From contig OZ024762.1 of the NCBI GenBank assembly GCA_964016885.1, forward strand, positions 7,006,001 to 7,070,000: DNA of 64,000 bases, in the 5' to 3' direction. The DNA comes from Eledone cirrhosa. Lineage: Eukaryota. Shown in pieces: positions 5,876 through 57,450 of this stretch (the stretch's first letter is position 1; every line of letters begins with the position of its first letter). Under the pieces are notes generated by a model. That model saw nothing but the letters and a program-made list of their open reading frames with translations. It did not search any database and had not been told where the DNA came from. The translations under genes and the position numbers were made by a program.

Positions 5876-5914
5876 TGAACCTGAAGATTGCGAAAGCATG
5901 AAAGTACTTGTTCA
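5876..5914 (+). ncRNA. Minimal type I hammerhead ribozyme
   Basis: TGAAC-CTGAAGA-T TGC GAAA GCA T-GAA-AGTACT-T-GTTCA: 5-bp stem I, intact core, GNRA-capped stem II, palindromic stem III, CUU site. Confidence 0.8.
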
Positions 5915-6467
5915 ATTAACACTTAACATTTAATATTCTACCATACTATTTCATTATAATATCATTATAATTTTAAAGGATTGTAAATAAAGCGAGTAAA
6001 TCAGACAAAGGAATTCCTTTTATTAATATAATCTTCTATACACAATCATACACACCCGTGTATATTTATTTATATATATATACATATATATATACGTATA
6101 TGTATATATATATATATATATGCATATATCTATGTATATATATATGCATATATCTATGTATATATATATACATATATATATGTATATATATATATATATA
6201 TATATACATATATATATATATACACATATATAAATACATATATATATATACACATATATAAATACATATATATATATGTATACATACACACACACACACG
6301 TGTGTCTGTTTGTGTGTAAATACAGGTTTTCGTTTTCATAAAATATTTAGTGTGCAAGTAATTGGCATTTAACTGAGTAATTACTTCTGTGCAGTTTACT
6401 GTGCAATTAAATGTGCAGTTTATGGAGTAATTAGCTTGGAATGGTAAAAGTTTTTAATCTTTTGAAA

Positions 6468-7276
6468 CAACCACAACTACCAACAACAGCACCACCACTA
6501 CCAACACAACACCACCACCACTACCAACACAACACCACCACCACTACCAACACAACACCACCACCCACTACCAACACAACACCACCACCACTACCAACAC
6601 AACACCACCACCACTACCAACACAACACCACCACCACTACCAACACAACACCACCACCACTACCAACACAACACCACCACCACTACCAACACAACACCAC
6701 CACCACTACCAACACAACACCACCACCCACTACCAACACAACACCACCACCACTACCAACACAACACCACCACCACTACTAACACAACACCACCACCACT
6801 ACCAACACAACACCACCACCCACTACCAACACAACACCACCACCACCAACACAACGCCACCACCACCACCAACACAACACCACTGCCACCACCAACACAA
6901 CACCAGCGCCACCACCAACACAACACCACCGCCACCACCACCAACACAACACCACCGCCACCACCACCAACACAACACCACCACCAACAACACACCACCA
7001 CCACTAACAACAACACTACAAACAACACCAATAACACCACCACCACCACCACCACTAACAACAACTACAACACCAATATCACCACCACCACCACCACTAA
7101 CAACAATTACAACACCACCACCACCACCACCATCACCACCACAACCACTAACAACTACAACACCACCACCACCACCACCACCACCACAACCACTAACAAC
7201 TACAAGACCACCACCAACAACAACAACTACAACACCAATAACACAACCACCACCACCACTAACAACAACAACAACA
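6468..7276. repeat. (ACC/AAC)n-derived minisatellite, 25-bp unit
   Basis: CCACTACCAACACAACACCACCA repeated. Confidence 0.9.
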
Positions 7277-7569
7277 GCTACGAGTTAAGAAACTGAGCAT
7301 TCACCATCTTTTAATGTTGTGTGAGGTGTTTTATTTCATTTTCAAAACTAGAGAGCGGTTATTTGGCAGAAGTTCAATAATGTTTTGGCATTAATTTGTC
7401 TAGAACATTCTAACCCTGGCTTTCTAGATTGTTCTATAATTTGTTGTGGTGTGTGTGTGTGTGTGTGTGTGTGTGTGTGTGTGTGTGTGTGTGTGTGTGT
7501 GTGTGTGTAGTTGAAAATGAACATACAAAACACGAGAGGCAATTTTACAGTTGTATAATATATATATAT

Positions 7570-8440
7570 GTGTGTGTGTGTATGGATGTCTCTGAGTATA
7601 TGTGTGTATCTGTGTGTGTGTATGGATGTCTCTGAGTATATGTGTGTATCTGTGTGTGTGTATGGATGTCTCTGAGTATATGTGTGTATCTGTGTGTGTG
7701 TATGGATGTCTCTGAGTATATGTGTGTATCTGTGTGTGTGTATGGATGTCTCTGAGTATATGTGTGTATCTGTGTGTGTGTGTATGGATATCTCTGAGTA
7801 TATGTGTGTATCTGTGTGTGTGTATGGATGTCTCTGAGTATATGTGTGTATCTGTGTGTGTGGATGTCTCTGAGTATATGTGTGTATCTGTGTGTGTGTA
7901 TGGATGTCTCTGAGTATATGTGTGTATCTGTGTGTGTGTATGGATGTCTCTGAGTATATGTGTGTATCTGTGTGTGTGGATGTCTCTGAGTATATGTGTG
8001 TATCTGTGTGTGTGTATGGATGTCTCTGAGTATATATGTGTATCTGTGTGTGTGGATGTCTCTGAGTATATGTGTGTATCTGTGTGTGTGTATGGATGTC
8101 TCTGAGTATATGTGTGTATCTGTGTGTGTGTGTGTATGGATATCCCTGAGTATATGTGTGTATCTGTGTGTGTGTATGGATGTCTCTGAGTATATGTGTG
8201 TATCTGTGTGTGTGGATGTCTCTGAGTATATGTGTGTATCTGTGTGTGTGTATGGATGTCTCTGAGTATATGTGTGTATCTGTGTGTGTGTATGGATGTC
8301 TCTGAGTATATGTGTGTATCTGTGTGTGTGTGTGTATGGATGTCTCTGAGTATATGTGTGTATCTGTGTGTGTGTGTATGGATGTCTCTGAGTATATGTG
8401 TGTATCTGTGTGTATATATGGATGTGTCTGAGTATATGTA
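7570..8440. repeat. ~40-bp minisatellite, ~21 copies
   Basis: TATGGATGTCTCTGAGTATATGTGTGTATCTGTGTGTGTG; only the TG number varies. Confidence 0.95.
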
Positions 8441-8879
8441 TGTGTGTGTGTATATATGTATGTATCTAGAACTTCCATCGATTCCTACATGTGCTCCAGT
8501 TGCTCCAACAGGTTGGTGTTGAAGTTAACCTGCATGTGGCTGAGCATTCTATTGACACGTGGACCCCTTAACGTGGTTTTCAGCTAGATTCAGGCTTACC
8601 CTTTCAAGTACAGGTACAGTCCATCTGATGGCCTTCTCAATAGTTTCAACATAACCCCACATAACCCCACATAACCCCACAGCTCAGTAATACTTTGGCA
8701 GGGCCCGACTTTCACATTTTAAAGCCCTTCTCTAAAAAATTCGTGTTTTAAAATGTTTATTAATTGTACATGATTATTATTATCCATATTGATGTTAATA
8801 AACTATCTATCTATCTCTCTATATCAGCCTGTAGGTTGAGGAAAAGGAGGAGGAGAGGAAAGGAGTACAAACTCTTCCT

Positions 8880-54778: not shown

Positions 54779-56153
54779 TACATGACATACAGAATTAAGA
54801 ACCTTGCTTTCATAAAGACAATGAAACCTTGTTAAGTTAGTTATATTCTGTTCTAAGTCGAAAGCTCATCTCTGTAGTATTAAGCGACTGAGAGTAAAAG
54901 ATTCTACCTGGACAGGATACTAGTCTATTGTAGGATTAACTCCCCAGCTACTGCTGATACTCCCTCTCATCTGAGTGTACTGGTGCAATGTAAAATAAAG
55001 TGTTTTGTTCAAGAACACAATTCAGCACCTTGTTCAGGGATTGAACCAATGTCCTTATGATCATAATTCCAGCATCTTTACCACTAGCCAGTAGTTATCT
55101 ATTGACCACTACAACCACTATACTTATCCACCATCTCCACCACATCCACCACCACCACCATCAACACCACAGTAAATCTAATCAATGCTCTGGAAGTAAT
55201 AATGACATCCAACAGGATTATATTCCATAATTAAAGAAAGTACCGTTACATTCAGCTATGATATATATCGGGTGTTTGTGAGTGGGCTTAAACTACTCCC
55301 AGGAGGACCACAGAAGCAATAAATCTAACAACATACCACCACATACCATCACTGAGCTCTGAAGAACTGCAATATCTCTTAACAGTGATGTAGGCTGCTG
55401 TAAATGAGTAAATGACAGACATAATCACAGAGAGAGAGAGAGAGAGAGTGGGGGGGGGGAGCCATGTTAGTTAGGGTATTTTTGTTGTTTTTGTTGTTGC
55501 TTTTATTTTTCAATGTTTGCCTATGTGAAACAGATGCTAGCTTTAGTTAGATCACAGTAGATACACATGTAAATATTAATTGATTCTGATTAAATATTTT
55601 ATCTACTTTAATAATATTAATGTTTTGTCACAGCACATTATATGTGTGTAGAATGTCTACTTTAGCTATCAGAGCTTCCAAATATTACTGTATAAAATGT
55701 GTATATCATCATCATCATTTTCCATGCTAGCATGGAATAGACAGGTTGTCCCATTGTGAGACAAGTCAGATCAGGTGACCATGTCTTTCTCACACAGAAA
55801 CCTTTTTTGGTATAGTTTCTACAGCTGGATGTCTTTCCCAATAGCAACCACATGTACAGTGTGGACTGAGTGCCTTTTATCATGGCAACAAAGTGACCCC
55901 TTTACAGTGTGGAATATATGAATATTTATAATGTGTGTGTGTATATATATATATATATATATATTTCTTTATTAGCCACAGGGGCACAAAAGAAGGGGAC
56001 AAATACAAAGGGGGAAGTTTACATACAATAAAAACGTGTAAAATGTTATCACAAATGCAATTTAAAAAGTTAGTCGATTTTCCCCAATAGAGGGAGACAG
56101 TTTATATGGGTAACACATACCCCCGAAAAAAAATGTGCAACCCTCATCTCCAG

Positions 56154-56395
56154 TATGTAATAAACAACATAAGGCAATTATTCCATTTACCAGGGGTTTT
56201 TAAAATCCAAATTCAATAAACAGACCAGAATTTTTTCATTCTGAGGTTTGAAAGCAACACTTTTTGCTTTTAAGAAACCACTGGTAAATGGAATAATTGC
56301 CTTATGTTGTTTATTACATAACTATTAAGCTCTGTTACCTACATAGAGCACTCTTTTTTCCTGGACTTTTCCGACGGAATTACTTCATTTACACA
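56154..56395 (+). mobile_element. Fold-back HHR element, family F; HHR at 56234-56293 has one core substitution
   Basis: TTTCATT-CTGAGGT-TTGAAAGCAA/TTGCTTTTAA-GAA-ACCACTGGT-A-AATGGAA (A9 replaced by T). Short inverted arm at 56154-56205. Confidence 0.7.
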
Positions 56396-56612
56396 TATAT
56401 ATATATTAAACGAAGAAGTATACATTTCTCTACATGAGTATAGATACAAGTCTAGATACATACACAGTGTCCAACTTATACTGAGTTTGGTTCTATGAAA
56501 GAGTTAATAAAATTAATAGATTCAGAGCCTAATAAAATCAAATATCGGAAATATATATACATGTATATATATATATATATATATATATATATATATATAT
56601 ATATATATATAT

Positions 56613-57080
56613 AACAAAGATTAATATGGTTCATTGATTACTCAATGAATATAGTTTTACAATAGATTAAAAGCACTCAACAAAGAAGTTTTCTGGAGTT
56701 ATTAATATTATTCAAAATATTAATAAATGAAGACTTCACATAATCAAAATATATGTTTTATTATATATATTTCGGAGGTACTGTGCTGTTTTTTCAGTAC
56801 GTCCTCATCAGATAAAATATATGAATTGATGTATGACATACCTCAACTGTCTTGGTGGTTCAATTCCAGTATTGGCAGTACTGGAATTGAACCATTCAAT
56901 TCCAGAACTGCCAATACTGGAATTGAACCACCAAGACAGTTGAGGTATGTCATACATCAATTCATATATTTTATCTGATGAGGACGTACTGAAAAAACAG
57001 CACAGTACCTCCGAAATATATATAATAAAACATATTTTGATTATGTGAAGTCTTCATTTATTAATATTTTGAATAATATA
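56613..57080 (-). mobile_element. Fold-back HHR element, family C (~190-bp near-perfect palindrome arms)
   Basis: Palindrome ~56705-57080 centred on CCA (56892-56894); (TA)n flanks. Confidence 0.85.
56964..57035 (+). ncRNA. Type I hammerhead ribozyme, family C (mirror on - strand at ~56751-56822)
   Basis: TTTTAT-CTGATGA-GGA C GTACTG..CAGTAC C TCC-GAA-ATATATAT-A-ATAAAA, with canonical G10.1-C11.1. Confidence 0.85.
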
Positions 57081-57390
57081 TATATATATATATATATATA
57101 TATATATTATATATATATATATATATTATATATATATAACGTGATGAGTGGAGAGATGTTGTGCTGAAAAGGATCGATCCAACCCAAACAAACATGGGAA
57201 AACAGGCGTAAAATTGATTATGATGATGATATATGTATATACTTGTTAGTTAATCAAGCGATACTGGTGTACACAGGATAAAGCATTCAACAAAGTATAC
57301 ATATAAGTCTGTGTACTCCAGAGTATTGGAATTACAATGAAGTAGAAGTCAATAGCTTATAATTTACTCAATTTTATTGCGTACACAATT

Positions 57391-57450
57391 GCTGTTATAC
57401 ATATTTCAATGATAACTTGTTATATAACAGCTACAACCTCATCAGACAGC
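57391..57450 (-). ncRNA. Type I hammerhead ribozyme, family J-like
   Basis: - strand: GCTGT-CTGATGA-stem II (TGTTA/TAACA core)-GAA-ATATGTAT-A-ACAGC. Same stem I as 35474-35547, different stem II. Confidence 0.72.

Follow-up and report, generated by a model that had tools for sequence, protein, structure and literature searches.

Predicted hammerhead ribozymes in a 64-kb window of Eledone cirrhosa mark Penelope-like ends, among them candidate copies of an RNA leader

In a 64,000-nucleotide (nt) stretch of the genome of Eledone cirrhosa (GenBank assembly GCA_964016885.1, contig OZ024762.1, forward-strand positions 7,006,001 to 7,070,000; hereafter the window), the predicted hammerhead ribozymes are, judging from sequence, the ends of about 16 families of Penelope-like elements (PLEs), mostly of the Hydra type, set in (TA)n. 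Short copies joined head to head, here called stubs, are probably cDNAs of the 5′ leader, each beginning at a predicted transcription start and reaching either of two priming sites behind the ribozyme; we give this reading a probability of roughly 60%. PLEs are the closest relatives of telomerase reverse transcriptase (RT). How they produce repeats joined head to head and tails on one side only is a standing problem, as is the function of their hammerheads, and the copies described here predict RNA 5′ ends and priming sites exactly. The elements belong to a published kind; they are unusually dense, and the mechanistic reading of them is testable.

An initial annotation of the window had placed in-register hammerheads at about 20 loci, in at least 10 families, and named eight of these loci. 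Stem I, core, stem II, GAA, stem III, H and stem I′ do follow one another in register at all eight. Descriptors recovered seven; the eighth (35287), whose helix III has 4 bp and an 8-nt loop, was read by eye and has relatives at other loci that pass the descriptor. A strict type I descriptor, run at two settings, returned nine and seven matches in the window, against a mean of 0.01–0.24 and a maximum of 2 in 100 block dinucleotide shuffles per setting, and none in the reversed sequence; a second descriptor returned nine against none in 50 shuffles. Shuffled sequence, proposed at the outset as a control, thus gave nothing like the rate in the window. Core heptamers number 40, versus about 17.5 in shuffles, and 20 of them assign to 12 repeat families and 16 insertions, some 13 being intact and seven damaged (stem I lost or mutated). 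With ends that lack the core or carry a mutated one, recognized by homology, the tally rises to about 35 insertions in about 16 families, namely 30 in 12 families and five in four more. The proposed density of one locus per 3 kb holds for cores, but intact motifs occur once per 5–7 kb. Rfam models, also suggested as a check, failed to support the motifs: there was no match in the window at gathering scores, and the 150 listed of 582 E-value matches were microsatellite or hairpin noise, so that the case rests on descriptors, shuffles and family structure. The window itself has 35% GC and is rich in microsatellites; the genome measures 3.0 Gb. At 27636–27702 a core heptamer and GAAA flank a 19-bp hairpin, which was considered as a further family and rejected, as it had no full-length match at any other locus examined.

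Helix I differs in sequence between families while its pairing is retained, as the annotation had said of the stems. Helix III is a self-complementary 4–9-mer in most families and longer in F, X and N. It is fully self-complementary, allowing G-U, in eight of the nine window matches to the second descriptor (the ninth scores 0.86), and the strict descriptor, which is blind to palindromy, gives the same picture. The position of the G10.1-C11.1 pair holds that pair in H and C, A-U in A and B, and U-U in F and G; U-U is also found there in published Hydra motifs (PMC8557442; for this and other sources cited by PMC or bioRxiv identifier, statements refer to the portions available). The window motifs thus appear to have the minimal type I hammerhead layout beyond chance, with self-cleavage only predicted, and their short palindromic helix III looks like the dimer-type layout described for PLE hammerheads. 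A ribozyme with a 4–9-nt palindromic helix III would be predicted to act only as a dimer or with the help of protein. Family N keeps helices I–III, but position 4 of its core is A in the majority of intact copies (L089, L094, L103, L139 and other loci); this U4A core, unusual for a hammerhead, appears as 19 identical 11-mers among 45 rows.

The suggestion that the motifs are remnants of PLE pseudo-long terminal repeats (pseudo-LTRs) is borne out by same-strand links to frames with RT and GIY-YIG domains in six families, A, E, G, J, N and X. Such frames lie upstream of A in L105, of E in L106 and L025, of X in L089, and of J, which follows a third PLE type, in four loci (L026, L113, L127, L139). 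Family N precedes the start of a Hydra-type open reading frame (ORF) in L089, and a C-like family lies downstream of a Hydra-type frame in L255. The frames linked to A, E and X match Hydra-type proteins by tblastn, and frames of L021/L172, L024, L025, L089 and L116 carry the Hydra-type marks RW[K/R], DKT and a CxCx5C linker. Family G, which besides the window copy has left pieces at 13 of 20 loci, inverted at two, runs into a Neptune-like frame with a DKG-type motif and a CX2-5CxxC linker before GIY-YIG, as compared by eye with Neptune rows. Tandem or partial tandem units with pseudo-LTRs were found in L116, L024 and L248, and none in the window itself. Most 3′ ends of the printed copies, read by eye, run into TA or derived repeats, in agreement with the (TA)n association first proposed. 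Insertion ends are asymmetric, with one tail, and the linked frames are RT/GIY-YIG; on both counts the copies differ from miniature inverted-repeat transposable elements (MITEs) and other DNA transposons, a comparison made with no dedicated transposase search.

Copies stop at either a near or a far 3′ site, and the intervening 75–100 nt, delimited by eye, constitute the tail; full units (L116, L024) run from the hammerhead through the tail to the ORF start. A small hairpin closed by RCTC/GAGY can be seen by eye in the tails of A, B, C, D, D2, E, F, H, L, N and X, with a second such hairpin after the far site in L089, L116 and L248, and a similar one at the end of a coral Hydra consensus (PMC8557442). 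Among the 127 pairs joined head to head, exactly one tail is present in 117 and two tails in a single pair, where independent arms would give 63 and 28; among pairs of an unselected X set the figure is 20 of 21. Arms are also closer within pairs than between them, with median differences of 2 versus 8 in X and 2 versus 12 in A and the same tendency in B and F, and by eye both B arms often share private variants. Folding predicts that head-to-head pairs form long hairpins in which the ribozyme is buried.

The 5′ ends are given relative to the core, to within 2 nt, with loci from 5′-biased queries and arms near locus edges left out. Arms of F begin between −14 and +16 in 37 of 39 cases, and those of B between −72 and −67 in 10 of 15. 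In X, 64 of 84 arms begin at +36 to +62, eight more at +12 to +30, and 12 are extended; in A, 12 of 50 begin at −86 to −79, five being longer and 33 shorter. By contrast with these zones, 5′ ends are scattered in J (25), I (18) and D (10). Extended copies of F contain a CCAAT box, an initiator-like word (−10) and, at −36, TATAAATA, which is exact in 22 of 29 such copies, has one mismatch in the other seven, and stands 27–30 nt ahead of the 5′ zone. In the C-like family, TATAAATA lies at −95 of an extended copy, 31 nt ahead of the point from which neighbouring copies begin (−66 to −47 in five copies). Family A breaks at an initiator-like site. The X limit falls within loop II, which is long in this U3-A8 variant ribozyme, with a TATA-like word about 29 nt upstream, and this is why every X arm in the window is without a core. 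In F, X, A and the C-like family, then, the 5′ ends cluster at a predicted transcription start. A splice-donor-like word lies about 40 nt after the predicted start in A and in the C-like family, upstream of the hammerhead, as in the 5′ intron of fly Penelope. A fixed 5′ end was also considered for D2, an older family with 75–83% identity to most copies, and was rejected, being the truncation of the window copy itself.

These features can be joined in a single route. A promoter in the pseudo-LTR would start the RNA, and the PLE enzyme would nick both strands of a TA tract and use each strand to prime on that one RNA, once at the near site and once at the far one. Both cDNAs would run toward the cap, stopping at or before the RNA 5′ end, and would be joined head to head by microhomology; double priming followed by joining would account for the outward 3′ ends, the single tail, the 5′ limit and the variants common to both arms. 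In G, J, I and D, the longer copies, whose 5′ ends are scattered, would stem from priming at the downstream pseudo-LTR. Since X RNA would start inside loop II, X transcripts initiated at the promoter would be without the catalytic core, leaving cleavage to read-through RNA. Biochemistry offers a precedent, as a PLE protein cleaves and extends both strands in vitro and initiates at two internal, tail-bounding sites near the 5′ end of its message (PMC11167929). Most stubs, lacking the promoter and predicted to fold so as to bury the ribozyme, would be dead, and among what the annotation had termed mini-elements we regard the short head-to-head copies as likely inert copies of a leader and not self-sustaining elements. 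A more ambitious version, to which we would give slightly less than even odds, is that Hydra-clade PLEs prime twice on one RNA at twin leader hairpins, so that most insertions write a head-to-head leader copy up to the cap site, the genome becomes a fossil map of transcription starts in hundreds of thousands of copies, and the X mRNA escapes self-cleavage while read-through RNA is cut. Literature searches, with subscription papers outside their coverage, returned no statement of leader-derived stubs or of twin priming in PLEs.

The 5′ limits need not be transcription starts. The stubs may instead be ordinary 5′-truncated PLE ends, their limits set by RT stops or fold-back at RNA or cDNA structure, or by antisense self-priming as proposed for rotifer PLEs. 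Inverted truncated copies, optional tails and junction palindromes have long been known (PMC8557442; PMC3846280), the A, B and F junctions do fall on short palindromes, and in F the limit and the 5′ edge of helix I fall at the same place. Yet the limits occupy differing structural places, at −82 in A, −69 in B, helix I in F and mid loop II in X, where both arms truncate separately inside the loop and the loop is not kept as a spacer. TATA spacing fits in F and in the C-like family, and fold-back alone does not explain a second arm that ends at the near 3′ site. On this balance we consider ordinary truncation unlikely.

A second alternative treats the palindromic stubs as non-autonomous elements, similar to MITEs or short interspersed nuclear elements (SINEs), copied whole from read-through RNA by a PLE enzyme in trans. 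The 201-bp F composite of the stub at 35155–35351, with one junction, does occur in all 40 scored genomic matches at 97–100%, and one B junction dominates 30 loci; both sets were retrieved with queries that selected for the junction. Unselected copies, in contrast, display many different junctions in a narrow zone, private variants are by eye common to both arms and not asymmetric across copies, and the stubs are without a promoter, their predicted fold being a long hairpin. Whole-stub copying is accordingly improbable in our estimation. Three F composites 4.9 kb apart on C3 (L208–L210) are probably a segmental tandem.

Returning to leader copying by double priming, several observations weigh against it or against the assignments beneath it. 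A clear TATA match is confined to F and the C-like family, and in F the TATA columns are no more conserved than their neighbours, in loci that were picked by that region. The TATA-like word of X doubles as a strand of stem II and differs between subfamilies; A has no consistent TATA upstream, and E has a weak 5′ limit with no matching TATA. None of 30 B copies is extended, retrieved with a query that was biased to the junction and included it, and both F and X also have AG near their limits. The B and F pair sets come partly from loci picked by composite queries, family E has no within-pair excess of similarity, and the partner arm is strictly nearest in just 29 of 127 pairs. As for identity, the ORF linkage that the annotation proposed to look for was obtained for six families; a search for it in nine others (B, C, D2, F, H, I, L, M and O) found none, and the D unit has no frame. 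A walk upstream of F met TG/TA repeats after 300–500 nt and no ORF. Pfam named none of six linked-type frames at E < 0.01, and the probable Hydra and Neptune assignments were made by motifs rather than by a tree.

Family D brings in a third possibility, that the copies are retrozymes spreading via self-cleaved circular RNAs. The D unit is 1,293 bp long and ORF-less, with a longest sense stop-free stretch of 71 codons; it is tandem in L248, and its post-tail part occurs in three loci. A reading of D as autonomous and of A as short and non-autonomous was reversed, D being ORF-less and A linked to an RT/GIY-YIG frame. A true retrozyme-like layout is seen at L127:6131–7911, where 311-bp hammerhead units form two opposite tandem arrays, and retrozymes have been proposed to derive from PLEs (bioRxiv 10.64898/2026.07.22.740005). 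Against this, window copies are single or head to head, with no tandem arrays of about 300 nt; their 5′ ends lie off the cleavage site, which nearly all scored copies span, although the scoring anchors required that region; and the D unit is four times the retrozyme monomer of about 300 nt (PMC7229834). Spread through circular RNA is thus very improbable for these copies. The retrozyme-like character suggested at the outset applies to family D only, and there the fit appears loose, the unit departing from the tandem array of about 300-nt monomers.

How dense such motifs are beyond the window was estimated from 79 ten-kb stretches taken at round coordinates. Thirty-five stretches contained 68 hammerhead motifs, versus 0–1 in five shuffles. 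The bootstrap density of 0.57–1.20 motifs per 10 kb (1.4 in the window) extrapolates to about 2.6e5 genome-wide (1.7–3.6e5), and PLE-type frames make up 3.7% of the sampled sequence, in 17 stretches. Counts obtained with other descriptors are about 2,000–9,000 per genome for metazoan PLE hammerheads (PMC4209133) and up to 120,000 motifs in axolotl (PMC7229834); if our estimate is right, the genome would be among the most hammerhead-dense reported. The annotation had supposed that density and family diversity might be uncatalogued; literature searches did not find this density in print, and the clade and an octopus member are catalogued (PMC8557442). Stubs of this kind may be classed as MITEs or SINEs by repeat pipelines. 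In an octopus repeat annotation of 2026, 31 Penelope-like families are given as recently active, and the main text nowhere mentions ribozymes.

The insertions of the window are collected in Table 1. Different families are stacked in one TA tract at 14388–15247, 17165–17533, 29817–30512, 35155–35745 and 39476–39878, and the F stub beside an A end recurs in L013 and L014. Other repeats include what we take to be C-terminal fragments of RTE-like long interspersed nuclear elements (LINEs) at 23356–23868 and 48850–49191, and a frame fragment at 13871–14208 that presumably represents the 3′ end of a non-LTR RT element. Elsewhere, L022:4350–8288 holds what we assume to be Helitron-like Rep/helicase frames, and L027 what are presumably stacked Tx1-like LINE frames with endonuclease and RT. 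A SINE-like repeat is abundant and dispersed, forms a 148-bp tandem at 37780–38134 of the window, and interrupts PLE 3′ untranslated regions (UTRs) in L105 and L138. Minisatellites of 95 bp (12569–13087), 40 bp (13186–13341) and 42 bp (18874–19218) are also present.

Table 1. Penelope-like insertions along the window, with positions counted from its first letter
Feature	Position	Strand	Remarks
Family G	5133..6047	+	5′-truncated Neptune-like PLE; inverted piece 5133-5191; GIY-YIG C-terminus 5221-5403; 3′ UTR, hammerhead 5876-5914, short tail; near-complete frame in L175
Family N fragment	9215..9277	-	3′ half of hammerhead
Family X head-to-head stub	10380..10562	.	older, without core
Family O fragment	10595..10648	-	3′ part of hammerhead-bearing end
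Family X head-to-head stub	11007..11187	.	without core
Family H end	14388..14560	+	cut inside stem II; tail present
Family F head-to-head stub	14582..14769	.	joined at core (14640); tail on + arm
Family X head-to-head stub and second X tail (15184-15247)	14952..15247	.	
Family F head-to-head stub (17165-17340), then family A end	17165..17533	.	A: inverted tail, hammerhead 17418-17483
Family J end	18068..18165	-	diverged
Family X short arm	22742..22800	-	
Family I end	23194..23414	+	hammerhead at 23297, stem I mutated; more I pieces 32017-32143, 35681-35745
Family A head-to-head stub	23891..24202	.	hammerhead 24087-24152 (+); damaged copy 24086 (-); tail on - arm
Family N tail	26697..26825	+	
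Family H end	26908..27102	-	hammerhead 27064-27101; tail present
Family X head-to-head stub	27368..27563	.	without core
Family E end	29817..29889	+	hammerhead 29817-29857; second E pair 36763-36940
Family B head-to-head stub	29932..30308	.	intact hammerheads 30059-30129 (-), 30191-30262 (+); tail on - arm
Family X head-to-head stub	30328..30512	.	begins inside loop II; without core
Family F head-to-head stub	35155..35351	.	hammerheads at 35291 (+), 35284 (-)
Family D end	35420..35678	-	hammerhead 35474-35547; part of the ORF-less 1,293-bp unit
Cluster: A tail, X head-to-head stub (39583-39771), F tail	39476..39878	.	
A-like end with inverted tail	43503..43818	.	damaged hammerhead at 43629
Family M end	48095..48154	+	damaged hammerhead at 48104
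Family L end	56154..56389	.	short inverted arm, mutated core, tail with hairpin
Family C head-to-head stub	56612..57079	.	intact hammerheads 56756-56817 (-), 56969-57030 (+); tail on - arm
Family D2 end	57241..57546	-	hammerhead 57391-57450; tail present
Family J end	62369..62460	-	damaged hammerhead at 62418

Much of this has precedent. The link between PLEs and hammerheads, opposite-strand pairs, many families per genome and U3-A8 cores are all published, as are (TA)n targeting, inverted copies, tails and promoters in pseudo-LTRs. The minimal hammerheads of metazoan PLEs (Cervera and de la Pena 2014, PMC4209133) likewise comprise many consensus families per genome, single motifs and close opposite-strand pairs, with the U3-A8 core variant and palindromic helix III, and their cleavage is weak and dimer-dependent; unlike them, the motifs described here often miss the G10.1-C11.1 pair. 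Non-LTR retrozymes (Cervera and de la Pena 2020, PMC7229834; Li et al. 2026) are also ORF-less hammerhead units related to PLE pseudo-LTRs, but in the portions of those papers available their monomers measure about 300 nt, stand in tandem, carry canonical ribozymes and have circular RNAs, a layout unlike that of the window copies.

Penelope of Adineta vaga and Drosophila virilis (PMC3846280, PMC2377424) has a promoter inside the pseudo-LTR and palindromes at inverted junctions, and one rotifer family has a putative TATA and initiator (PMC3846280). The fly promoter, by contrast, is TATA-less and internal (PMC2377424), and in rotifers inversions are ascribed to antisense-RNA self-priming, and solo pseudo-LTRs to recombination or deletion (PMC3846280). 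The nearest relatives are the Hydra clade of PLEs with a C-terminal GIY-YIG domain, hammerheads and (TA)n insertion, which includes Hydra-1_Obim of Octopus bimaculoides (Craig et al. 2021, PMC8557442). Shared with that clade are insertion into (TA)n, type I hammerheads with a short palindromic helix III and often U-U at the base of helix II, the RW[K/R] and DKT motifs with the CxCx5C linker, and inverted 5′-truncated copies with a one-sided tail. The differences are of scale and detail: one octopus Hydra family in the available text of that paper versus about 16 PLE families in 64 kb, and tails of 30–40 nt there versus about 75–100 here, while the 5′ limits, promoters and one-tail statistics come from the present analysis, none being met in that text. 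Poseidon_Ac of the green anole (Frangieh et al. 2024, PMC11167929) comes closest in mechanism, with internal RT initiation, two tail-bounding sites, and cleavage and extension of both strands. Its hammerhead is dispensable for insertion in vitro, and the available portion of that study does not treat head-to-head stubs or 5′ limits. The Poseidon_Ac tail lies inside the ORF, whereas in the Hydra-type units described here it lies in the 5′ UTR.

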